In this document: piece by piece, positions 1-18,477 of the stretch
How positions within the stretch are numbered: the first letter of the stretch is position 1
Layout: each line of letters opens with the position of its first letter
DNA from: Candidatus Bathyarchaeota archaeon
GTDB taxonomy: Archaea; Thermoproteota; Bathyarchaeia; Bathyarchaeales; Bathycorpusculaceae
Direction: 5' to 3'
NCBI GenBank assembly: GCA_963828195.1
Contig: CAWHDT010000003.1
Location: forward strand, 96,001 to 160,000
Length of the DNA: 64,000 nucleotides
Translations under genes and position numbers: made by a program
Notes under the pieces: model-generated
Database searches by the model: none
The model's input: the letters and a program-made list of their open reading frames with translations, nothing else
Told to the model about the DNA's origin: nothing

Positions 1-1406
1 GTTCCTACTCCGGCTATGGTGAATGCGTGGTCGATAGGCATCTTGAACGGACCATTCCATTGGCGAATAGGCGGACTGATTGAATCCTGCAGTGCCTTCT
101 TGAGGTCGTCAATTCCCTTACCTGTTAAGGCTGAGACCTCCACAATCTTTGCCTTCTCATAGGGCGTTCCCCTCAGAAGAAGCTGGATTTTCTGCTTGAC
201 CTCCTCAATTCTCTCACGGGAAGCCAAATCAACCTTGTTTAGGGCGACTACAAGATTTTTTATTCCGACGTCTTTGATTATTGCGAAATGCTCCACACTT
301 TGAACCTGAAGACCAAGATCAGCAGCCACAACCAGCACCGCTGCGTCAATTATGTTAGCGCCTGCCACTGCATGCCTAACCAGGCTGAAGTGCCCTGGCA
401 AATCAACAAGAGTAGCCAGATAGGGACCTAACGTGAAAGCGGAGAAGCCCATGTCCAGCGTCATCCCCCGCCGGGCAGCGTCTGGCGCCTTGTCCAGAGC
501 AGCCGTCGAAGGTTTTTCAGTAAGCTGGATAGCGAGCATTGTTTTGCCGTGGTCAACATGCCCGAAAAGACCAACATGAACTGGGATAAGTCCTTTGCCT
601 TCAGTCATGGTGTAACTTTTTGCGACTGCGTTTGCTTCTCTGAGGAATAATTCCACCGCATCAACAGACTTCAACCCGTCTGCCAGCGCCTTGTGCACCA
701 CTTCTTTTCTGATTACTGAAAGAGAAATGCCTAAGTCCGGGTTCTTGTACCGAGTCATAACCTCCATCATGGCTTTTCGGGTTTCCCTCTCGATTCCCCT
801 TGCCCTAAGTGATTTCTCGTCTTCCACAACTTTTTTGGGCTTGGACCTGATTGGCGCTTCAAGCCTTTTGAGAACCGCGGCAACGATGGTGTTGGCGATC
901 TCTTCGATGCTTTGCTTGCTTGGATCGACTACGGCGAGTGGTGTGTCCCATTTGTAATCGCCCTTGGGCGGGTCAAGTTTCTGGTTGATTTCCTCAATGA
1001 GAGACTGCGGTATGGGCGATCCTCGTTCGTGGTTCCATTTAGTAGCTACCTCAATGGGCGTATCAACATAGACTATGTCGTAGTCAGAGCCTGCTCGTTT
1101 GGCAATCTGCCTCAGCTCGCTCCTCATCGACTTGTAGTAGTTTAAGTCATCGCTGATGACGAGAAAACCATTCTCCAAACCAGTTGCAATCGCCTTCTCA
1201 TAAAGAGCCTTCACCGACGCTTCCCGTTCAGGTTTGAATCCTTTGGAGGAGTACGAGAGCATCTCCCGAAAATCGTCCGAGCTGACAACCATGGTCGATA
1301 TCCCATGTTTGTCCTCAAGCAGGGAAGCGACGTTTTTGCTGATGGTGGACTTTCCCGAAGAGGGCAATCCGCACATTATAAGCAGGTAAGGATAACTCTG
1401 AGACAC
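1..1406 (-). CDS. pstK-selB: PSTK (O-phosphoseryl-tRNA(Sec) kinase) fused in frame to selenocysteine-specific elongation factor SelB; 3' end beyond window edge
   Basis: Manual translation from GTG at 1406 (TTG at 1418 is an alternative): PYLLIMCGLPSSGKST ... DDLNYYKSMRSEL ... YKWDTP (PSTK motifs). Continues without a stop (..EANAVAKSYT-MTEGKG.., ATG at 608, same frame) into GHVDHGKT, RGMTLDMGFSAF, DLPGH, NKVD, VSA and KMPIDHAFTIAGVGT, typical of archaeal SelB. Missing from the ORF track because there is no stop before the edge. Confidence 0.9.
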   Translation of the reverse strand, partial: MSQSYPYLLIMCGLPSSGKSTISKNVASLLEDKHGISTMVVSSDDFREMLSYSSKGFKPEREASVKALYEKAIATGLENGFLVISDDLNYYKSMRSELRQIAKRAGSDYDIVYVDTPIEVATKWNHERGSPIPQSLIEEINQKLDPPKGDYKWDTPLAVVDPSKQSIEEIANTIVAAVLKRLEAPIRSKPKKVVEDEKSLRARGIERETRKAMMEVMTRYKNPDLGISLSVIRKEVVHKALADGLKSVDAVELFLREANAVAKSYTMTEGKGLIPVHVGLFGHVDHGKTMLAIQLTEKPSTAALDKAPDAARRGMTLDMGFSAFTLGPYLATLVDLPGHFSLVRHAVAGANIIDAAVLVVAADLGLQVQSVEHFAIIKDVGIKNLVVALNKVDLASRERIEEVKQKIQLLLRGTPYEKAKIVEVSALTGKGIDDLKKALQDSISPPIRQWNGPFKMPIDHAFTIAGVG

Positions 1407-1615
1407 CGTTTTCCCCAATTGTCTAACCCATCTTGGGTTTATAATTCTGCCGAACGTCAGACTTGATGATTTCAAGTCGCTTAGCTAGTTTGGGCTAAGA
1501 ACATCAAAAATCACATTAAGCAACGCCATCTTAACGGCTTGCAGTATGAAGACCGGACCGTTGCAACGATATTAGCGCGGAGCGCAAAGTGTAGACACAA
1601 GCACATTTTAAGAGT

Positions 1616-2197
1616 TCATTTTGAGTTGGTCGGCTGATAGGTTGCTACTATAACTCCCTTGTCAGTCGTCTTGGAGCTAACGAGCTTCAATGAAGTGAAA
1701 GGAACACCGTCGGCAAAAAGACGACGCCCTTCTCCCAGAACCAGCGGATGAATTAAAAGAACATACTCGTCTATCAGATTGCTATGCATTATTGACCGTA
1801 TCAACCCGCCGCTGCCCATTATTACAAGATCCTTTTCTAGCTCTTTCTTCAGCTTAAAAAGCGTCTCTTCAACGTCGCCATTAATCAGCGTGGAATTTTT
1901 CCATGGCAAAGGTTGCTTTAACGTTCTGGATACGACATACTTTTGCGTGTTATCCATATATGATGAGTAAGGGCTATCTGTTCGCTTGGGCCAGACTTTA
2001 AAAAAGCCCTCATAAGTCGTTCGGCCAAGCAGCAAACCGCCTGCATTAGCCATTGCCTCTCCTGCTGAAGGCATGGCTGCATACGGCGCACCCCATCCGC
2101 CACGTGTAAAGCCACCACGAGTATCCTCGTCAGGTCGCGCCGGCGCCTGCATAACCCCATCTAAAGTCAAATTCATGAATACAATGATTTTACCCAT
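1616..2197 (-). CDS. Dihydrofolate reductase / RibD C-terminal domain family protein
   Basis: N-terminal LTLDGVMQAP, LLGRTTY, GSGGL, DEYVLLIHPLVLGEGRRLF motifs. Confidence 0.9.
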   Translation of the reverse strand: MGKIIVFMNLTLDGVMQAPARPDEDTRGGFTRGGWGAPYAAMPSAGEAMANAGGLLLGRTTYEGFFKVWPKRTDSPYSSYMDNTQKYVVSRTLKQPLPWKNSTLINGDVEETLFKLKKELEKDLVIMGSGGLIRSIMHSNLIDEYVLLIHPLVLGEGRRLFADGVPFTSLKLVSSKTTDKGVIVATYQPTNSK

Positions 2198-2199
2198 TC

Positions 2200-2590
2200 T
2201 TAGAAAGCTCCAGCAGCATTAGGCATATTCGGCAGTATCTGTTGTGTAATATCCCAGTACTCGACGATTTTATCGCCTTTGATGCTGGTATAAGTGAACC
2301 TGCCTCAACCCTCCTTCGCCGGGTTTAGATTTGGAGTTCAGAAATTCAGTGTGCGCTGCGACCAAGTCTCCGTCAACAAGGACATTTTTGACGAAAAATC
2401 CAGGTTCCATGTTCTGTGTATTTAGACCTTTACTTGCTGCAATCTGGGCATCGACCAAGTTTTCTATGCTTCCAGAAGTGAATGGATTATGTGTTTTACA
2501 GTCAGGCGCGAAAAAGCGTAAGCCTTCCTTGAACTTTCCCGAGCCTACTAATTTAAAATACTCTGCAACAATTTTTTTACGGTCTTCCAT
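2200..2590 (-). pseudogene. SnoaL-like/NTF2-like protein with a +1 frameshift near 2287
   Basis: ORF ends ..RQVHLYQHQRR*, but the shifted frame continues IKGDKIVEYWDITQQILPNMPNAAGAF* (TAA at 2200-2202), the usual SnoaL-like C-terminus. One extra base in TAC-CAGC-ATC explains it. Confidence 0.75.
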
Positions 2591-2650
2591 TTTTCAAATA
2601 ACCACCTAAAAATTAACATTTTACTAAAAATAGCCTACTTTAATAAACCT

Positions 2651-2758
2651 TTGCTGACGGCGATTTTTCCTGAAGAAGGCAATCTGCGCGTTACAAGCAG
2701 GTGAGATAACTCTGAGACATCCGTTTCCCCAACGTCTATTCAATCTTCAGTCTATAAT
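2651..2758 (-). repeat. Degenerate copy of the pstK 5' end and promoter (1336-1445)
   Basis: AAGCAGGTGAGATAACTCTGAGACATCCGTTTCCCCAA vs AAGCAGGTAAGGATAACTCTGAGACACCGTTTTCCCCAA; similarity extends over the P-loop codons and TATA region. Confidence 0.8.
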
Positions 2759-2884
2759 TGTGTCACATCTCACCCTTTGGCAAACGCTTGCTTGAAACTT
2801 GTGAGTTTACGCTGAGAAAAAACAGGAAAACATGTGAAAAAATAAAAGGGATAGATGGTATTTCTAGCATAGGAGAATGACCTT

Positions 2885-3493
2885 TTGAGGAAAATTATTG
2901 TTTTGTCGTTTATAACGCTCGATGGCGTCATGCAGGCGCCGGGTGGTCAAACGGAGGATACAAGCGGCGGCTTCAAGTACGGCGGCTGGGCATTTCCGCA
3001 TTTTGATGATTTTCTGGGTAAGGTTATGAGTGATCAAATGGGGCATCCTTTTGATCTATTGCTCGGTCGAAAGACCTACGACATCTGGGCCGACTATTGG
3101 CCCATGCACAATGACGAAAGGGACCCTGTTGGTTCGGGCATTAACAAAGCGACAAAGTTCGTGGCTTCGCATTCGCCTGTAAAATCCAGCTGGCCCACTA
3201 CTGTGCAATTACAGGGAGATGTTGCTGAAGCAGTTAAGAAGTTGAAACATCAAGATGGGCCTGAACTTCAAGTTCACGGAAGCGGCAACCTTATTCAGAT
3301 GCTCTTGAAAGAGGATTTGGTCGATGAGATGTGGCTAAAGATTTTTCCGATAACGCTCGGTTCAGGAAAACGCTTGTTTGCCGAAGGCACAATGCCTGCA
3401 GCATTTACTCTTATGGAATCCAGAACCTCGCCGAAGGGAGTAATCATAGCTTCTTACAGGCGAAGCGGAAAAGTGGAAACAGGATCGTTTTGA
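2885..3493 (+). CDS. Dihydrofolate reductase / RibD C-terminal domain family protein
   Basis: ITLDGVMQAPGG, LLGRKTY, HGSGNL, GSGKRLF motifs; paralog of 1616-2197. Confidence 0.9.
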   Translation: MRKIIVLSFITLDGVMQAPGGQTEDTSGGFKYGGWAFPHFDDFLGKVMSDQMGHPFDLLLGRKTYDIWADYWPMHNDERDPVGSGINKATKFVASHSPVKSSWPTTVQLQGDVAEAVKKLKHQDGPELQVHGSGNLIQMLLKEDLVDEMWLKIFPITLGSGKRLFAEGTMPAAFTLMESRTSPKGVIIASYRRSGKVETGSF

Positions 3494-3614
3494 GGCGAAC
3501 GCAAGTTACAAAAAAATGCCGTCGTAGCAGGCAAGCAGCGTATTATACAAAGCAATAAAAGAACAATCTGAGCATTTACTGCCAAGGAGCTCGAGAACGC
3601 CAGAGGTTTGTTTC

Positions 3615-4928
3615 GTGTTGCCGTTTGATAAGTTGAAGGCCACAATCCCCAAGAGCATACTTGACAGAGGCTTAACAGTGTTAGGCACGGAGTCAGAGCC
3701 GATAAAACTGCTTTTCGAGCAAAGACGTGTGCCCCAAGAAGGCTGGAAAGACAGCCAAATCGAAGAACTGCTGAATTTGCTGGCTACGATGGATTCTGAC
3801 AAGGACAGCAAAGCAGTTTTTCTTGGCGAAAGAGAGGGCAGGGTTGCGTCCCCAGCAGTTTCAAAGTTGGCAGCTGCATTTCACCATGGGGTAGGAAGGT
3901 CAGGCGACCTCACCGAAGCCCAGCCTAAAGCGGCAGGCGCGTCTCTGATGTATTTCTTCGCTAACAAATTGGCAACTGACGCCCTGAAAAGGTTCGGTGC
4001 GCCAAACATCAAGAAGGCAGTGGTTTTTCCTGTGGCAACGGGAATGACGCTTGCTCTTGCCTTATGCGCCGCAAGAAACCAAACTGGGGGAAAAGAGGTT
4101 GTTTACCCGCAGATTGACCTCAAGACTCCTTTGAAGGCGATTCGTCTTGCTGGCCTTCAAGAAAGAATAGTTGCAGGAGAAGTCTACGGAGACGCAGTAA
4201 ACGTTCCCACAGAAGAGATAGAAAAAGCAGTTAACGAAAATACTGCCGCGATTCTGTCAACAACCACGTTCTTTGCTCCCAGAGAACCCGATAAGATCAA
4301 AGAAATCGCAAAAATCGCGGAGGAGAAAAAAGTACCGCATATCATAAACAACGCGTTTGGAGTGCAGAGCCGCGAGATCATGAAGCTGGTGAGAGGCGCA
4401 GTTGACGCGGGACGCGTAGACGCCATAGTGCAGAGCACAGACAAGAATTTCCTCACCCCGGTCGGGGGAGCAATAGTCGCTTCGCCAAACGAAGAATTCT
4501 TAGACGCCGTTTCTGAAACCTATGCGGGGAGAGCAACAGCCGCGCCCATAGCGCAGTTCTTGGCAGCCGTGCTGTCGATTGGGCTGGAAGGCTACGAGAA
4601 GCTGAGAACCCAGCAAGAAGAGAACCGAAAGTTCCTTGAATCAGCCTTGAAGGAAGTTGCAGAGAGGCATTCGCAGCGTATACTGAATGTTTATAATCCG
4701 ATATCCGTGGCTATGACGCTGGATGGATTGGACGCCAAGAAAATAGGCAAAGCCTTGTACGCGGCAAGAGTCAACGGTGCAAGAGCGCTGGAGAAAAATG
4801 ATTTCGGAGTATGCTGCCCACAGTATGTCTCATCCTACATTAACTTTGACGCCAGCATAGGAATACAAAAAAACGAAATCACCCTGGCGGCAGAGAGGTT
4901 AGACAAGGTTTTGGAAACAGTGGCGTAG
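3615..4928 (+). CDS. spcS: O-phosphoseryl-tRNA(Sec) selenium transferase (SepSecS)
   Basis: GEREGRV, HGVGRSGDLTEAQPKAAG, PVATGMTL, FFAPR, HIINNAFG, VQSTDKNF (PLP lysine), YAGRA motifs of SepSecS; next to tRNA-Sec. Confidence 0.95.
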   Translation: MLPFDKLKATIPKSILDRGLTVLGTESEPIKLLFEQRRVPQEGWKDSQIEELLNLLATMDSDKDSKAVFLGEREGRVASPAVSKLAAAFHHGVGRSGDLTEAQPKAAGASLMYFFANKLATDALKRFGAPNIKKAVVFPVATGMTLALALCAARNQTGGKEVVYPQIDLKTPLKAIRLAGLQERIVAGEVYGDAVNVPTEEIEKAVNENTAAILSTTTFFAPREPDKIKEIAKIAEEKKVPHIINNAFGVQSREIMKLVRGAVDAGRVDAIVQSTDKNFLTPVGGAIVASPNEEFLDAVSETYAGRATAAPIAQFLAAVLSIGLEGYEKLRTQQEENRKFLESALKEVAERHSQRILNVYNPISVAMTLDGLDAKKIGKALYAARVNGARALEKNDFGVCCPQYVSSYINFDASIGIQKNEITLAAERLDKVLETVA

Positions 4929-5018
4929 TGGCGGCGTCCAAGGGGAATCGGACCCCGAGACCTTGCGGGCTCATCGGATTTGAAGTCCGATGCTAGGACC
5001 ACCTAGCCGTGGGACGCC
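4929..5018 (-). tRNA. selC: tRNA-Sec (anticodon UCA), 9/4 fold, CCA encoded
   Basis: GGCGUCCCA CG GCUAGG-UGGU-CCUAGC AUCGGA-CUUCAAA-UCCGAU GAGCCC-GCAA-GGUCUC GGGG-UCCGAUU-CCCC UUGGACGCC GCCA. 9-bp acceptor (one C.U), 6-bp D stem, 6-bp anticodon stem, long variable arm, 4-bp T stem, G73. Confidence 0.97.
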
Positions 5019-5131
5019 TCAATTGATGCTTTTCTGGTGTTGAAAGAATATATAATTTATCTATTCGTTGGCTGCAAAGCGCGTTTTCTCAGAATTTTTG
5101 GGGAGCGAGACAGCGGAGTTAAGGGAAGGCG

Positions 5132-5455
5132 TTATCCATCTCTGGGCACTATCTCTCTTATCTCCACGGTGCCGTTATTCTCAAGTATTGGACAGCCTTT
5201 GGCTATTTCAACTGCTTTTTCATAACTGTCAGCCTCCACGATTATGTACCCGCCTACAGTATCGCTGCCGAAGTCCATTGTCCTCACGCCTTTTTTGGAA
5301 ATTACCCTGCCCTCCTGCTTAAACCTGCTTCCTGGAATCTTGCCGGAAGCAACCTTACCTGCCCACTCCACAAAACGGCTTGAATATTCCAAAGTCAGTT
5401 CGCTCGTTCGCAAGCCCCCTTTGAAAAGAAACGCATATAAAGTCAACCGATTCAC
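5132..5455 (-). CDS. YciI family protein
   Basis: VGGYIIVEADSYEKAVEIAKGCP..GTVEIREI C-terminal pattern of YciI-like proteins. Confidence 0.75.
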   Translation of the reverse strand: MNRLTLYAFLFKGGLRTSELTLEYSSRFVEWAGKVASGKIPGSRFKQEGRVISKKGVRTMDFGSDTVGGYIIVEADSYEKAVEIAKGCPILENNGTVEIREIVPRDG

Positions 5456-5679
5456 CGAAATATCTTGCCCTATGCATCATAAAAAACCTATTGGCTATCT
5501 GCCACAGCGCGCTGGTCTGTCCCTGAAATCGTTTAATGTCTGTTTTTGAATTGGTTTATGCGTTGACAGGTTGACTTTACATTCTGCAACCTTTTACTCG
5601 CGTAGTTCACAAAAAGGTTCTGCCCAAGCACTTATAACTAATCTATGTCATATATGGAAACTTGAGGGAGAGGTGAAGC

Positions 5680-6852
5680 ATGTTGGCCTGTCCAGGGCGA
5701 AGATTTCGCTTGAGACTAAAGACATCGGTTACGGCTGTTCTTTTAATATCAGTTTTCCTTTCAAGCAGTATTCTCGTTCAAAGCGCGCATGCCTCAACAG
5801 CAACGGACCCGCTATTCACCAACCTTTCGCCGCTGACTATGATTCCAAATGTGGGGTCCTGCAACCCCTTCGCCAATTCCCTCGCCATTTCCGAAGGCTT
5901 CTTGTATGCAAGCGGCTATGAAGACCTCTCCACTAACAATACCAATTCACAGAGCGGTGATGGTGAGAGCTCTATAACGGGTTCCGGCCAAGTAGTGCGA
6001 GAGGCAGCCGTCTATGCCAACGGAAATGAGCCCATGGCCGTAGCTATCGTCTATGCAAGTTTGACGGGAGAGCTCCCTAACGGTGTTGGCGGTTTAGTCG
6101 GCGAAACATATGGATTGGCAAGTGCGTTTTTACTGGATTGGCCATATCTAATCTTTGACAAGACAACGGGAAAACCTTTGGATTCCAAAACATATTACTC
6201 CAACATCCCTCTTGACCTCAACTACCGCTTTTCTATGACCCCTACGGGGTGGGATGCATTAGCGCAGGGAATTATCTCGTTCGGAAATAACATAACGGCA
6301 GAGTATGAAGAAGGAATAGGAGAATCTGCTGGTGTTCCATCTGGAGGATCTCCTGAGGGAACACTTTCCTTCAATTATTCTGGATATGGCGGCAGCTCAC
6401 ATTATTTAATAATTGAGGCAACAGCCATAGCAGATTCTGAGGTAAGTTTGGACGCACAAGGGTACGGCGTTAATTCGCCTGTCTCTGAGGCGCAAGCGGT
6501 TGTGGATCCATATTTATATGTTGATCCATCATCTCCCTTGGCGGGTCAGATGCAAGTTTACGTGGGCACCACCGCCAACGCCAACCCAAGTGATCCTTCA
6601 CAGTGGACGCCGTCAGTTCAAACGCCGATAGACTTGAATAACATCCTTCCGTTGGCAACTCCATTTGCAAATTCAACTGCGTCTCCTTCATCTAGTTCAA
6701 CTCCAACTGTTTCCACGTCCCCCATAGTTCCAGAGTTTTCTAGCAAATTGCTAGGAATTACGTTAGTTGCCTCTATGCTCATAGTTTTGTCTGCGGTTAT
6801 CATTGCAAAGAAGAAAATAACCTGGAAAACCCAACGCGGTCAGCATTCTTGA
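5680..6852 (+). CDS. Secreted/surface protein with PEF-CTERM-like sorting signal
   Basis: N-terminal signal peptide, S/T-rich linker, VPEF + TM helix + KKK tail. Confidence 0.7.
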   Translation: MLACPGRRFRLRLKTSVTAVLLISVFLSSSILVQSAHASTATDPLFTNLSPLTMIPNVGSCNPFANSLAISEGFLYASGYEDLSTNNTNSQSGDGESSITGSGQVVREAAVYANGNEPMAVAIVYASLTGELPNGVGGLVGETYGLASAFLLDWPYLIFDKTTGKPLDSKTYYSNIPLDLNYRFSMTPTGWDALAQGIISFGNNITAEYEEGIGESAGVPSGGSPEGTLSFNYSGYGGSSHYLIIEATAIADSEVSLDAQGYGVNSPVSEAQAVVDPYLYVDPSSPLAGQMQVYVGTTANANPSDPSQWTPSVQTPIDLNNILPLATPFANSTASPSSSSTPTVSTSPIVPEFSSKLLGITLVASMLIVLSAVIIAKKKITWKTQRGQHS

Positions 6853-7082
6853 AGAAACGATTTGTACCTGACTCACTCTTTTGTTTTGCGTTTCAGGGCG
6901 TCTTTCAAAATTAACAGGCGCCCGCGCTCGAAAGGCAACCACTGGAAGATATGAGAAGCAGTTTCCCAAACTTCAATGCATAACATCGGGACAAGTCAGC
7001 GCGCATTTTTTATAAAACCAGGAAACTATACATCATTTTTATTAACCTATAGCCAGAGACTGTTTTTGAGTGGCGAATTCAG

Positions 7083-7526
7083 ATGGCGAATTTGTTTAAA
7101 ATCTCAAAATACGCTGTGGCTCTTTTAGTAGCTGGCGGGCTCGCCTGGTTTATTGCAGGATTGTTCTTTGGCGGATCCGTTGCGATCTCTTATTTTTCAA
7201 CCGGTTCTCTCGCGAAGGCGGGCATTGCAACCCCTGGCTACCCAGCCAATGCAGTGCGCCAGATGGCCTGGGATCAATTTTACATCAACCTCTATTCCGC
7301 TGTAATCGGGTTGTTCGCAATCATGATTGGACTGACGGCGTTCAGACGAGCGGAGAAATGGGCGTGGTATGCAACATTGGTCTTGGTCATAAATGGGGTG
7401 ATTACAAGCGTCTTTGATTATTTGAGTTGGGGCGGTTGGTACACCATATTCATTACTTCTTTGCCGGCGCTTCTTGCTTTGTTGTTCTCTGCCAAAAGCT
7501 TCTTCCCAGATGCGCGTCAAACATGA
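7083..7526 (+). CDS. Hypothetical membrane protein (about 4 TM helices)
   Basis: 147-aa hydrophobic ORF with AFRRAEKWAW motif. Confidence 0.7.
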   Translation: MANLFKISKYAVALLVAGGLAWFIAGLFFGGSVAISYFSTGSLAKAGIATPGYPANAVRQMAWDQFYINLYSAVIGLFAIMIGLTAFRRAEKWAWYATLVLVINGVITSVFDYLSWGGWYTIFITSLPALLALLFSAKSFFPDARQT

Positions 7527-7884
7527 AACCGATTGGCGGTCAATTACAAAATTAGGACACACATTCACGCTCGTAGGGCAAGTGGCAAGCCCCAGCCGCC
7601 ATCGTGCCGCACTTAATCGAACGAAATCGCCTTGGCGGCAGAGCCCGTTTGGTGCTTGGTTATGGGGCTGCAACGTATTTTGGGGAGCCGTCGGCAATTC
7701 AGGTATAAACCGATTGATACCTGCTTTTCTTGCTGCTTTTTATTTTCTGCACGGGGAACAGAAAAGCTTCAGCTTGATTTGGGTTCTGAACCAAAAAACC
7801 AGCTTAAATCAACCCTGACAAGATTAAGCCTACCCTAAGAGGATCTCTAGTATTTGCATCAAAATTCCAACGCAAATATGGGTT

Positions 7885-7904
7885 GAAAAACGAAAAAGAA
7901 GAAA
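7885..7904 (-). terminator. U-rich archaeal terminator after hdrA-mvhD
   Basis: UUUCUUCUUUUUCGUUUUUC directly after the hairpin. Confidence 0.5.
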
Positions 7905-7912
7905 GGGTTGGT

Positions 7913-7942
7913 TTCGTCCTCCCGCGACGGCTCAAGAACGAA
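7913..7942 (-). promoter_or_regulatory. Candidate SECIS element in the 3' UTR of hdrA-mvhD
   Basis: UUCGUUCUU-GAG-CCG-UCG-CGG-GAGGACGAA: 9-bp lower stem, purine bulge, 3 G-C pair upper stem. Starts 8 nt after the stop and lies before the U-rich terminator. Confidence 0.6.
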
Positions 7943-7950
7943 TTCTTCGC

Positions 7951-10458
7951 CTACTTTGCTGCGGGTTGAGGGACGGGTTTAACCACAGGGGCTGGGGCTG
8001 CTGCTTTGCGTTTGAGCATGTTCTCTAAGGTTGGTTGAAGCTTTGCGTTTTCCGCTTGTATCTTTTCTTTTCCCAGTGCCTCCATCTGCTCGTTCATTTC
8101 CTTGACGATACTGACGAATTTCTCTCCTTCAGCTGATGAAACATAATCAACCCTGAATCTTTCTTTGCTCAATCCAAGCTTTGTCAGCATTCCAGCTAAG
8201 GCATCCATGCGCGCTTTCATCCTGATGTTTCCTGAGATGTAGTGGCAGTCGCTGGGAAGATGGCAGGCGGTTATCAGTACCCCTGCGGCTCCCAGCCTAA
8301 ATGCTTCCATAACGAAGTCCCGATCTACCCGCCCAGTGCACATTACCCTTATCGCCCTTGTAGTAGGAGGGTATTCCAGCCGGCTCGTCCCCGCTCGGTC
8401 CGCGCCGGCGTAACCTCACCAGTTACACATAAACGTCAGTATCTTATCCTCGGGTTTGTTTTCTAAAGCAGCTCTGATTTGCGAGGTTATTTGTTCATCT
8501 GTAAAGTGCATCTGACTTATGGCGTCTTGTGGGCATTCAGCAACGCAGGTTCCGCATCCGTGGCATTGGGCTGCATTTATCTGGGCTGGTTGTCCCTCAG
8601 CCGCGGTTATGGCTCCGAAGGGACAGCTTTTCACGCAGACCCCGCATTTTGCCTTCACGTTTCTGCATTTGGCGATGTCTACTATTGAGACAATTGGCTC
8701 TATCTTCCATTTCGGCTGCGAAAGGATGGTTGCAGCTCTCGCCGCCGCGCCGCTTCCTTGCGCTACGCTGTAGGGTATGTCCTTTGGTCCCTGGCAAGCA
8801 CCTGCTAGGAATACTCCGTCCATAGGTGTGTCCATTGGTTTGAGCTTCGGGTGGCTTTCCATGAAGAACCCGTCTGATCCACGCGTTATGTGCAGGATGC
8901 TGGCCAATTCTTCGGCTCCTTTGCTGGGTATGGCGGCGGTGCTTAGCACAACAAGTTCGGCTTCGACTTCGATGGGTTGTCCAAGCGTCGAGTCCTCTGC
9001 TCGGATAGTCAAGTTTTTGGTTTTTGGGTCTTCCATTATTTGGGACGGTTTTCCCCTGATGAAGATGATTCCCATTTCACGGGCTCTTCGGTAGAATTCT
9101 TCGTAGCCTTTGGAGGGAGTGCGTATATCTATGTAGAAAAGGTAGACTTCCACTTCGTTATGGTAGTGTTCTTTGAGAAGGATGGCTTCTTTTAGCCCAT
9201 ACATGCAGCAGAAACCTGAACAGTACTCGTACTTCTTTACGTCTCTTGAGCCGACGCATTGGATGATGGCAACGCTTTTCGGTCTCTTTCCATCGGATGA
9301 GCGGACTACGTGTCCAGCTGTCGGGCCGCCTGCTGTAATGAGTCTCTCAAACTCCAGAGCTGTAATTACGTTATCGTATTTTCCATAGCCATACCTTGGA
9401 TCGTCATATGGTAGATAAATGTCGCAGCCTGTTGTTGCTATGATTGCTCCAACTTCCAACTCAACTTCTTCTGGCTTTTGATTAAAGTTGATGGCTTCAC
9501 GCGCGCCGCAGGCATCCACGCATTTGAAGCACTCTATGCAGTAATCCCTGTTTATCGAGTAGATAAGAGGCACTGCCTGATCAAACGGAATGGAGATGGC
9601 TTTTCTCACGCCTAAGTTCATATCCCACTCATTGGGGTATTCTATTGGGCAGGCGTCTTTGCATTCTCCGCAGCCAGTACATTTGTCGGCCATAACATAT
9701 TTCGGGTTTTTGCGAACTTTAACTCTGAAGTTGCCTACAAACCCCTCTACTTTGAGGATGTCCGCATTGGTTATTACTTGGACCTTAGGATGGCGCAGTA
9801 CTTCCACCATCCTAGGTCCTTCAATTCATATGCTGCAATCCAAAGTTGGAAAAGTCTTGTCGAGCTGTGCCATGTGTCCTCCTATGCTTGTGTTCTTCTC
9901 GACAAGGTATACTTGGAACCCCATATTAGCCAGATCCAGAGCGGAGTTGATGCCGGCAATGCCGCCGCCGATAACCAAGGCGTTTTTGGTTACAGGGACA
10001 TCCATGGGTTCAAGAGGCTTAAGCAGCCTCGCCTTGGCCACCGCCATCTTTATGGTATCTTTTGCTTTTGCTGTGGCTTCTTTTGGATTACTGGGATGGC
10101 ACCACGAAGCGAACTCACGTATGTTCGCCATTTCAAACACATAGGGATTTAGCCCTGCTTCACTTACGGTTTTCCTAAATGTTGGCTCATGCATCCTTGG
10201 GCTGCAAGCGGCTACGACGACACGGTTCAATCTGTGTTCTTTTATTGCTTTTCTGATTTCTTCTTGTCCCGGGTCAGCGCAGGTGTAGCGGTTTTCTTTA
10301 ACGTAGACTACGTCAGGTATAGTTTTTGCGTACTCGGCGACTGAAGGCACGTCCACGGTTCCTGCGATGTTCATGCCGCAGTGGCAGACGAAAACGCCAA
10401 TCCGTAGCTCTTCTGATTTTTGGGTTTCAGTTTGTTTTTGGGTTTCTGGGCTGCTCAT
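7951..10458 (-). CDS. hdrA: Selenoprotein HdrA-MvhD fusion (heterodisulfide reductase subunit A with C-terminal MvhD), two Sec codons, about 835 aa
   Basis: Three ORF-track pieces are one frame broken only by TGA at 9826-9828 ([15 protein letters not shown]; canonical DCSxC) and TGA at 8416-8418 ([18 protein letters not shown]; canonical MvhD CNWC). Also [20 protein letters not shown], ferredoxin motifs and VMCTGRV. Confidence 0.93.
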
Positions 10459-11390
10459 TTCACTATCTCCACTAAGTTGAATCTTTTTGAAACTACATTA
10501 TGCCTATTCTCGCCAGCGACAGCTCTAAATTCTTTAGCAGCGTCGGTTGGTGAAGTTAGTCTTTCCAGGGCTTTGTTCCATGTGCCTGAATGAATTGAGG
10601 TATGTCTTATTTTTGTTCGTTTAAGAGTTAACGCTTCAGGCACGGGGCAAACGTTTTTGCATGCGCCGCAGTAAGTGCAGAATAATTCGTTAATGTGAAC
10701 TTTCTTGTCTTCGCCCAGCGTTAAGGCGCCGGGGATGGGGCAGATGTCGAGGCAGTCTTGGCATCCTTCGGGGCATTTTTCCTGATTGATTGCGATTACG
10801 CCTTCAAACGTTTTTTTGACTTTTATGGTGCCAGGACTGCATTTGAACTCGCATACTCTGCAAGTTGGGCAATACTCTTTTTGAATGTCAAGGCTGAGTT
10901 GGACGCGTGTCTTCTCGGTAGGTGATAAAGCCTCAAAGTTTTCGATTGGTCTGCCGTCATAACCAACCTTGGAGACTTTAATTAGCGATAGCGGGCAGGC
11001 TTTTTCGCAGTCTACGCATTCTTTCTGGCACTGGCTCGTGTCAACTTTTATGTCGCGGACCAGCTGCGGGTAACTTTCTTTCGCCAGCACAGATAGATCA
11101 TGTGCGCCGTTCAAAGTAACTTTGACTGCGCCATACGGACAGGTGACATCGCAGACGCCGCAGAAATTGCATTTTGCCAAATCAACGTCTATTTTGGCTT
11201 TTTTTGCTTTTTCCCCTTGAATTTTAGGCTGCTTCTGTATGCTTATGGCTTCTTTAGGGCAAGCCAAACTGCATATTTGGCAGCTAACACAGCGTTTTTT
11301 GTCAAGCGTTAACTTGTAATTCTTAACTTGCAAACCCCATTCTAACGTTAAAGCATCTGCCGCATCTTTCTTTACGTTTTTAAACGGCAT
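10455..11390 (-). CDS. Polyferredoxin (FwdF/MvhB-like, multiple 4Fe-4S)
   Basis: Six CxxCxxCxxxC-type motifs; ATGA overlap with hdrA. Confidence 0.85.
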
Positions 11391-18136: not shown

Positions 18137-18333
18137 TTTTGAAAGAACAACAACACCCGAAAAACAACTGTTGTTCTTCTTCAATATTTTTCAAAAGAAG
18201 AAGAAGCTTGGTGAAAGTGTTTTTCTTCTTCTATGGTCCTGTTTCTTTTTTGTTGTTGTTTTTTTGCACAAATAGTAGGTAGGTCCATAGGTGGGTCGGC
18301 TGCTTAGGTCCAGGGCTTGTTTTGGTTGATTTT
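18137..18333 (-). repeat. Dispersed non-coding repeat, copy A
   Basis: 43/44-nt identical core (18137-18180) with 63846-63889 in inverted orientation; weaker similarity over ~200 bp. Confidence 0.8.
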
Positions 18334-18477
18334 TGAGTTTAGGGACATTTGCCTTGGGTTTTGGTGCTGGCATCAAAAATCACATATAAAATACTCTCAA
18401 AGACCCATTTAATGTTTTGAGGAATCGCTGTTGTGCTGAATATCTTCGTGCCCAAGCCTTCAAAGCTAAAGTGAAGC

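Follow-up and report, generated by a model that had tools for sequence, protein, structure and literature searches.

UGA-adjacent hairpins in an hdrA-mvhD selenoprotein gene of a Bathyarchaeia selenocysteine cluster: a candidate new variant of the selenocysteine insertion signal

How does an archaeon mark the UGA codons that are to be read as selenocysteine (Sec), and does the mark lie where other archaea have it? This question is raised by a locus at the left end of a 64,000-nucleotide stretch of a Candidatus Bathyarchaeota genome (assembly GCA_963828195.1, contig CAWHDT010000003.1, positions 96,001 to 160,000; the whole stretch is called the window here, and positions refer to it), where the genes of Sec synthesis and decoding (PSTK, SelB, SepSecS, and tRNA-Sec) lie close to hdrA-mvhD, a gene with two in-frame UGAs. 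The original prediction for this DNA had placed the archaeal-type Sec components together at this locus, and every component that it listed was found in its place. It had also regarded Sec use as novel in the lineage, which is not supported, as the same cluster type, including a fusion of PSTK with the archaeal SelB (aSelB), was described for Bathyarchaeota by Mukai et al. (Front Genet 2022, main text of PMC8762117) and is repeated in passages of a review (PMC9499178). The locus is a further member of this published cluster type; the new point is the presence of a hairpin beside each UGA. Throughout, G000 denotes the genome under study, other G numbers the genomes of relatives, and L numbers individual loci.

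The gene hdrA-mvhD (7951-10458, minus strand), an HdrA2-like fusion, is the two-UGA selenoprotein gene that had been predicted about 3 kb away from the machinery. With TGA translated as U, its product has 835 aa and carries Sec at residues 211 (U211, codon 9826-9828) and 681 (U681, codon 8416-8418); it reaches 1079 bits with the NF040770 HdrA2 model (cut-off 1100) and matches VhuD at aa 672-801. Both U211 and U681 align with Cys in all eight Cys-type orthologs compared, and none of the Sec-type orthologs examined has lost either UGA or the reading frame behind it. The locus as a whole, with its components and its conserved UGAs, is far beyond chance.

Eight Sec-type hdrA-mvhD genes were codon-aligned, and pairwise synonymous differences were calculated in 15-codon windows. 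It was revealed that the two deepest troughs of synonymous diversity (gene mean 0.30) coincide with the two UGAs, with values of 0.13, 0.07, 0.06, and 0.09 near UGA-211 (windows starting at codons 205-220), and of 0.08 and 0.10 near UGA-681 (windows starting at codons 675-680). Eight Cys-type orthologs (mean 0.46) gave 0.34-0.54 and 0.45-0.53 in the same windows. A third dip, at codons 60-80, was set aside, as this is an A-rich Glu/Lys stretch with no clear fold.

At each of the two troughs the RNA folds into a hairpin that begins 6 nt after the UGA. Hairpin 1 (9780..9819, minus strand), following UGA-211, has 15 bp, a single bulged A, and an apical loop that varies, and its folding energy (-26.7 kcal/mol, z -6.5) was equalled by none of 200 shuffled sequences. 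Hairpin 2 (8379..8409, minus strand), following UGA-681, is built of 6 + 2 + 2 bp with 1x1 and GA/GA internal loops and a 5-nt loop (-23.7 kcal/mol, z -2.37; 5 of 200 shuffled sequences did equally well). Both stems are invariant in eight genomes, variation being confined to the loops, and 15 near-relative loci, some of which belong to the same genomes as those with G handles, keep the hairpins, with energies of -20.7 to -27.7 at site 1 and -22.4 to -24.3 at site 2. The Cys-type sequences at the same places fold with only -6.5 to -10.1 (site 1) and -8.8 to -15.8 (site 2). Moreover, when all 7,194 TGAs of the genome located in an open context (30 open codons before and 18 after) were ranked by the folding energy of the sequence that follows them, hairpin 1 took the first place and hairpin 2 the fourth, and the other top-ranked TGAs gave junk-like translations and are apparently non-coding.

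Counts of strong hairpins in Asgard and Methanobacteriota loci were tried as a negative control and dropped, being confounded by three high-GC loci; they were therefore replaced by a comparison of orthologous Sec sites. Unlike the Bathyarchaeia gene, the HdrA/MvhD orthologs of Asgard archaea in which the same residues are Sec have no hairpin after UGA-211 (-3.4 to -11.2 at 6/6 sites), and the sequences after UGA-681 fold with -7.2 to -16.3 (4/4 sites). The comparisons presented above demonstrate that both hairpins exist and are under selective constraint. Their placement suggests that they direct or stimulate Sec insertion, acting as in-frame signals adjacent to the UGA.

Homologs of the same enzyme in Freyarchaeota and Borrarchaeum (L197 and L202-L206) contain as many as four in-frame UGAs, which correspond to residues 27, 211, 681, and 732 of the protein encoded in the window, i.e., up to two Sec sites beyond those of the Bathyarchaeia enzyme.

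UGA-adjacent hairpins were also found in more distant Bathyarchaeia, whose fusion proteins are 41-46% identical to that of the window. There, an in-frame UGA is followed by a hairpin in three gene families, i.e., SelD, with the UGA at the position of the active-site Cys, a UGSC-family protein (PF24696, E 1.8e-21), and five secreted immunoglobulin (Ig)-like proteins with a Cys-Sec pair (named here the CU family). The main stems begin 5-7 nt after the UGA, and 8 of the 13 scored sites have z of -2.5 or lower. Four members of the CU family share an 11-bp stem in which 95.5% of 44 cells are paired and three of the 11 pairs show changes on both sides; sliding the partner by 1-3 columns, as a control, left 25-50% of the cells paired and 0-1 pairs changed on both sides. 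No selenoprotein gene with a hairpin was found in the flanks of the PSTK/SelB genes (fused or adjacent) of Archaeoglobi, Borrarchaeum, Sifarchaeum, and Promethearchaeota.

The five CU-family genes (L101:641-1678, 4053-5048, and 5217-6371; L111:4026-5483; L103:213-962; all on the minus strand) are located near Sec machinery. Each of them encodes an Ig-like or CARDB-like protein with a signal peptide and contains an in-frame UGA, which in three of the five directly follows a Cys codon. They may constitute an undescribed family of extracellular selenoproteins.

Could the conservation of the hairpins be unrelated to Sec decoding, reflecting mRNA stability, regulation or an overlapping feature, or could the locus be decaying, with the UGAs as plain stops? 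All the evidence comes from sequence and not from translation, and hairpin 2 is GC-rich and marginally better than its shuffles. Yet the constraint coincides precisely with the two UGAs, and no other place is constrained as strongly; the Cys-type orthologs have neither the constraint nor the hairpins, and the UGAs and the frames behind them are retained by the Sec-type genes. Furthermore, the machinery genes are all intact, with scores over or near curated cut-offs, and similar UGA-adjacent hairpins recur in unrelated selenoprotein families, which makes this explanation highly improbable.

A stronger challenge arises from the region behind the stop codon. A conserved motif of about 30-40 nt (7910..7950, minus strand), common to seven of the nine Sec-type genes, directly follows the hdrA-mvhD stop, and it may be an element of the 3' untranslated region (3'UTR) or a remnant. 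The hairpins might then be only local enhancers of UGA redefinition, similar to the selenocysteine redefinition element (SRE) of eukaryotes, and the true Sec insertion sequence (SECIS) would lie separately in the 3'UTR. Besides the motif itself (about 30 nt in these seven genes), this explanation draws on the lack of a bacterial-type RNA-binding extension in the aSelB part and on the fold of the G000 motif, which taken alone can form an 8-bp helix, a purine bulge, three G-C pairs, and a small loop, resembling the euryarchaeal SECIS described in passages of PMC13188914. The euryarchaeal SECIS is a two-helix fold of the 3'UTR that has a GAA_A bulge and three G-C pairs. UGA-adjacent SRE stem-loops are, in addition, known to act with a distal SECIS (passages of PMC2248747). 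The fold does not appear to be conserved, however: neither folding of the 3'UTRs of seven to nine Sec-type genes nor RNAalifold on seven of them (-0.8) disclosed a common structure. The motif is missing in G132 and G087, although both genomes retain both hairpins, and the constraint on the hairpins is far stronger than that on anything else in hdrA-mvhD. We therefore regard a separate 3'UTR SECIS with SRE-like hairpins as unlikely, albeit by no means negligible.

In three loci (L037, L038, and L039, of G095, G123, and G098, respectively), inspection by eye suggested an MvhD-like coding fragment about 40-110 nt past the stop of the Sec-type hdrA. It could be what is left of a tandem Cys-type copy that was deleted, a copy of the kind still present in G132.

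How do the hairpins compare with the insertion signals already described? The bacterial SECIS is a coding-sequence hairpin located just downstream of the UGA and bound by the C-terminal winged-helix domains of SelB, and the spacer in Escherichia coli fdhF is about 11 nt. The Bathyarchaeia hairpins resemble it in that there is one stable hairpin per UGA, in-frame and a few nucleotides 3' of it, which constrains synonymous sites. Unlike in the bacterial system, Sec synthesis proceeds here by PSTK and SepSecS and not by SelA, SelB has no C-terminal extension, and the spacer is 6 nt. The SRE of SEPN1 also begins 6 nt after its UGA. It is a conserved stem-loop directly 3' of the Sec UGA within the coding sequence, as in our case, but it is paired with a 3'UTR SECIS with which it works (passages of PMC2248747), whereas no conserved 3'UTR structure was demonstrable here.

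The euryarchaeal and Asgard systems employ the same machinery families and, in HdrA and MvhD, have Sec at the same residues. Passages of PMC9499178 (2022), PMC11227280 (2024), and PMC13188914 (2026) locate archaeal SECIS elements in untranslated regions, as in eukaryotes, and only those of bacteria adjoin the UGA; specifically, the archaeal element is assigned to the 3'UTR with one 5'UTR exception (PMC9499178) and, in 2024, to the UTR rather than the coding region (PMC11227280). As these same sources have it, the elements lie 30-1,500 nt away, one per gene, in contrast to the hairpin located here beside each UGA. Bathyarchaeota are not mentioned in the consulted portions of PMC11227280 and PMC13188914, and the term SECIS does not occur in the main text of PMC8762117, i.e., apart from its figures and supplements. 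A full-text literature search, which did not cover those figures and supplements, returned no paper on a Sec signal within the coding region in archaea.

As regards the decoding factor, the original prediction was right that PSTK and SelB are both present, but they are not two genes. They form one open reading frame (ORF), of which the first 491 codons, counted from the TTG at 1475, lie in the window (1..1475, minus strand); the ORF (G000:C3:95214-97475) extends 786 nt past the left edge of the window and encodes 753 aa from its first TTG, with no internal stop. Its real start is probably the GTG at 1406, because the 731-aa relatives begin at the residue aligned with V24. The KTI12/PSTK domain occupies aa 31-243 (Pfam, E 2.3e-37) and GTP_EFTU aa 300-466. 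The selB model TIGR00475 gives 276.3 bits with the fusion protein (cut-off 242.25), and TIGR03574 (selen_PSTK) gives 153.1 bits with the N-terminal part over 227 of 249 positions, which is below its equivalog cut-off of 290.5. The P-loop and the DD/NYY columns of the PSTK part are invariant in 13 fusion proteins, and besides the fusion no second PSTK-like match was found in the genome. The SelB part (aa 299-746) matches the whole Methanococcus maripaludis aSelB structure 4ac9 (positions 20-476 of 482 aa, E 1e-71).

PSTK and aSelB are joined in one ORF in 28/28 Bathyarchaeia-type and Archaeoglobi loci scored as fused, and both domains occur together in over 100 database clusters with a length of about 731 aa. 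A protein search with the fusion yielded 253 matches; the best 120 of them are nearly all 683-741 aa long with both domains, and those among these 120 that are named are mostly from Bathyarchaeota or Bathyarchaeia. Our system is like that of Mukai et al. in having PSTK and aSelB in one ORF, the machinery clustered with a Sec-using gene, a Bathyarchaeota host, and a tRNA-Sec of archaeal/eukaryal type. The rationale offered for the fusion in the main text of PMC8762117 is that it shields O-phosphoseryl (Sep)-tRNA(Sec) from SepCysS where SepCysE is missing. In the 96%-complete genome studied here, profile searches found neither SepRS (best 47.2 bits, cut-off 380.65) nor SepCysS (best 41.1 bits, cut-off 365.25), SepCysE not having been searched for, so the only published rationale for the fusion falls away in this genome.

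The remaining machinery is complete. The gene of SepSecS, the O-phosphoseryl-tRNA(Sec) selenium transferase (3615-4928, plus strand; PF05889, E 1.7e-117; TIGR03531, 482 bits, cut-off 224.85), is convergent with that of tRNA-Sec (4933-5018, listed as feature 4929..5018, minus strand; anticodon UCA), the sole tRNA gene in the 64-kb window. The latter is called tRNA-SeC by ARAGORN and matches Rfam RF01852 with 65.8 bits (gathering score 47). It has a 9-bp acceptor stem with one non-standard pair (position 8), D and anticodon stems of 6 bp each, and a 4-bp T stem, i.e., the 9/4 acceptor/T arrangement of the archaeal/eukaryal type, and both G73 and CCA are encoded in the DNA. A genome-wide look for selD had been proposed, and the gene was found on another contig (G000:C7:117717-118580; 232.8 bits, cut-off 125; NF010705, 343.2 bits, cut-off 291); it encodes a Cys-type SelD, and owing to its presence the Sec system is not degenerate. 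SepSecS, SelB, and SelD thus all score above curated cut-offs (TIGR03531, TIGR00475, and NF010705).

It had also been proposed to look for other genes with UGA aligned to Cys. A six-frame Sec/Cys paralog scan of the genome gave 130 "C-aligned" matches, of which only the two HdrA sites were credible; the remaining ones were rejected, being nearly all out-of-frame shadows of repeated gene families. A codon-usage filter discriminated poorly at 44% GC, and none of the six candidates inspected was convincing. Among the five FlpD matches in the genome only that of the window carries a TGA, none of the NiFe hydrogenase matches does, and no molybdopterin enzymes were found. The UGSC family gave no match in the genome, but the control of this search gave no match anywhere either. 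Within the limits of these scans, hdrA-mvhD seems to be the only selenoprotein gene of the genome.

One of these six candidates, a 243-codon frame elsewhere in the genome (G000:C5:824132-824863, minus strand), has two CDGSH-type motifs and one TGA inside a Cys-Pro-Ser-Gly stretch, at a position where relatives presumably have a small residue, and no strong hairpin follows it. Possible explanations are decay to a pseudogene, a sequencing error, and an unusual site of recoding.

Is the cluster native to this host? The assignment to Bathyarchaeia, which was part of the original prediction, is supported by the sequences: the relatives, with proteins 81-90% and loci 82-94% identical, are filed as Candidatus Bathyarchaeota or Bathyarchaeia, and a scan of GTDB contigs yielded 80 loci, of which those 82-94% identical bear such titles except for a few bacterial or other names. 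Four contigs that contain this archaeal cluster, or a SelB of archaeal type, bear the names Limnocylindrales (L085), Nanoarchaeia (L090), Sulfotelmatobacter (L092), and Deferrimicrobium (L117); they are probably mis-binned in those assemblies.

The same prediction had suggested that the cluster and the accessory genes mixed with it might have been acquired horizontally as a recoding island, and the patchy spread of the cluster speaks for this. Matches to PF05889 were found in 17 of 120 genomes of the genus, ten of them (G000 included) at full strength and seven weak (72-141 bits), the latter taken to be a related pyridoxal phosphate-dependent enzyme; in a sample of the class, SepSecS is present in 13 of 401 genomes (6 of 131 genera). 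There is also a clean presence/absence difference at the syntenic site, since in the closed, Sec-free genome G003 the distance from the left-flank gene to the Cys-type HdrA-polyferredoxin pair is 2.3 kb vs. 9.1 kb in G000. As species proxies we used a UvrA tree (26 rows) and a rooted AlaRS tree (27 rows), the first marker having proved to be UvrA, which is absent from other families, and AlaRS having been added. The Sec label needs seven changes on the former and eight on the latter, and starred branches force at least three and at least four changes, respectively.

The remaining evidence argues mostly for descent within the lineage. The SelB-domain tree (79 rows; L096 and L098 were dropped, lacking a 330-aa stretch) gathers all 29 fused forms into one clade and the genus into a 17-row subclade (each 100, starred), and the forms from Asgard archaea, which are unfused, group in a clade of their own (97, starred). 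The deepest lineages of the genus, G087 and G132, are Sec-positive on the rooted AlaRS tree, and the identities of SepSecS and HdrA to those of G000 fall in step with the identities of UvrA and AlaRS, i.e., Sec genes diverge in parallel with host genes. In at least one genome the cluster only seems to be absent because the assembly breaks off: G016 is syntenic up to the end of its contig, which falls 134 nt into the 3' end of SelB. Within 10 kb of the fusion gene, 18 near-relative loci contain tRNA-Sec (16), Sec-type HdrA (15), and SepSecS (14), and in none of the 18 do the RibD_C, SnoaL, and YciI genes or the 390-aa ORF considered below occur. No integrase or other mobility gene was noticed, although no systematic search for one was made. 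That the module can move is indicated by two Archaeoglobi fusions (L109 and L110), which nest within Bathyarchaeia in the SelB tree (94 in the SH-like approximate likelihood ratio test, SH-aLRT); this suggests a transfer of PSTK-aSelB from Bathyarchaeia into Archaeoglobi. The SelD gene beside the L109 fusion has no stop across the active-site position at which some Bathyarchaeia SelDs carry Sec. Considering all of these data, an acquired island is improbable, and the patchy spread fits an old Bathyarchaeia trait that was repeatedly lost, with the Cys-type HdrA paralog taking over, and not a recent foreign island. The prediction had counted its locus as less novel if the host belonged to a known Sec-using lineage with congruent gene trees, and this is essentially what was found, the trees being largely congruent apart from a remaining conflict over G123.

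The replacement is visible in HdrA itself. An HdrA-MvhD ortholog (85-93% identity) is present in all Sec-positive genomes of the genus, and the same two of its codons are UGA in each of them, and the Sec-free genomes have a version that is 69-73% identical, with Cys at both positions. The two types are deep sister clades (100, starred, each), and both are present in G132, in tandem, and in G087, apart. Methanococcus has Sec/Cys isoenzyme pairs of this kind (Vhu/Vhc and Fru/Frc). The likeness is that Sec- and Cys-type HdrA coexist or replace each other; unlike in Methanococcus, most species here have retained only a single version, and the Sec-type gene is accompanied by the entire Sec machinery in its presence and absence.

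The closed genome G087 has, in addition to a dispersed first set, a second, divergent Sec locus (L097; G087:C1:2827961-2829725), with a PSTK-aSelB 53% identical to that of the window and its own tRNA-Sec-like gene (86-88% identical); a nearby 205-aa ORF with an in-frame UGA belongs to no Pfam family.

Taken together, the most satisfactory explanation, which we hold to be probable, is a native cluster that encodes the Sec machinery next to the gene that uses it, with the hairpins as local recoding signals and with an origin before the radiation of the genus followed by repeated loss. In such a system SerRS would load serine onto tRNA-Sec, this serine would be phosphorylated by the PSTK module at the N-terminus of the fusion protein, and SepSecS would turn the phosphoserine into Sec with selenophosphate supplied by SelD, which is of Cys type and encoded at an unlinked site. 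The C-terminal aSelB module would then bring Sec-tRNA to the two UGAs of the neighbouring hdrA-mvhD, and the hairpin 6 nt after each of them would serve as the local signal. Each UGA would have its own element, in the position known from bacteria and from the eukaryotic SRE, instead of sharing one SECIS in the 3'UTR like that of other archaea. Genomes lacking the cluster have, at the same site, a Cys-type hdrA-mvhD paralog.

Several observations weigh against this explanation. Hairpin 2 is only modestly better than shuffled sequences (z -1.8 in a separate run, with 15 of 300 as good, besides the z of -2.37 given above), and the two HdrA sites offer no covariation, the few changes in their stems affecting either one side of a pair or the end of a helix. 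Three SelD sites of the distant Bathyarchaeia have no significant hairpin (z -0.5 to -0.9), and the rule of a hairpin after a UGA is therefore not universal. The 3'UTR motif conserved in seven of nine genes could be a real SECIS, and the alignment with 4ac9 revealed the four-domain archaeal layout, with no extra C-terminal domain like the SECIS-binding domains of bacteria. The scans for selenoproteins are blind to genes with a weak hairpin and no Cys paralog. With respect to vertical descent, the GC content of the Sec genes (0.49-0.50) is slightly raised over the genome mean of 0.439 and the 95th percentile of 0.488 in 2-kb windows, and G123 is placed differently in the HdrA and AlaRS trees, so that some exchange within the genus is possible; both points favour the acquired island. 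Each species tree uses one gene as a proxy, and UvrA makes a poor marker.

The neighbouring genes can be described briefly. The polyferredoxin gene (10455..11390, minus strand; multiple Fer4 families and partial FwdF/VhuB-like matches) overlaps the start of hdrA by 4 nt and is hence probably co-transcribed with it, and it adjoins HdrA in 14 of the 18 related loci and in the Sec-free G003. Interspersed with the machinery are two RibD_C-like genes (1616-2197, minus strand, and 2885-3493, plus strand), a SnoaL-like gene (2270-2590, minus strand), and a YciI-like gene (5132-5455, minus strand; Pfam YCII), all recognized by Pfam, as well as two ORFs on the plus strand with no Pfam family, i.e., a 390-aa secreted or membrane protein (5680-6852) and a 147-aa membrane protein (7083-7526). 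The RibD_C, SnoaL, and YciI genes and the 390-aa ORF occur in none of the 18 related Sec loci and the 147-aa ORF in one, and in G099 only about 580 bp separate the fusion gene from SepSecS. On this comparison, the accessory genes are best described as private insertions of this genome and neither part of the Sec system nor its cargo.

Three stretches of the window (6704-7005, 7700-7881, and 18247-18344), one of them just downstream of hdrA, have 70-93%-identical matches at many places in G016, G099, and G087 and look like dispersed intergenic repeat families.

What would the hairpins mean for Bathyarchaeia? They may represent a new variant of the signal for Sec insertion. More tentatively, and less likely than not, Bathyarchaeia, and perhaps the Archaeoglobi with the fused gene, may possess a third, hybrid architecture, in which Sec is made in the eukaryotic/archaeal way, by PSTK and SepSecS, whereas the signal is of the bacterial kind, each UGA being marked by a hairpin 5-7 nt downstream of it within the reading frame, and the 3'UTR contains no SECIS. 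PSTK-aSelB, or a partner that it recruits, would act as the reader of the hairpin, and the fusion would serve decoding or channelling and not the shielding of Sep-tRNA(Sec) from SepCysS. The combination of archaeal Sec synthesis with UGA-adjacent in-frame hairpins would, if true, break the split between bacterial and archaeal/eukaryotic SECIS positions and bear on how the position of the SECIS evolved between the domains. There are also consequences for annotation, as gene callers cut such genes at the UGA and SECIS finders based on the 3'UTR would miss them, which may explain the absence of Bathyarchaeia from the selenoproteome surveys in the portions of PMC11227280 and PMC13188914 consulted. 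The replacement of Sec-type by Cys-type HdrA at one syntenic site offers a clean natural example of the loss of the Sec trait, and one fused factor, SepSecS, a tRNA, and a hairpin of 31-40 nt would, if the proposed architecture is true, make up a compact and portable recoding cassette.

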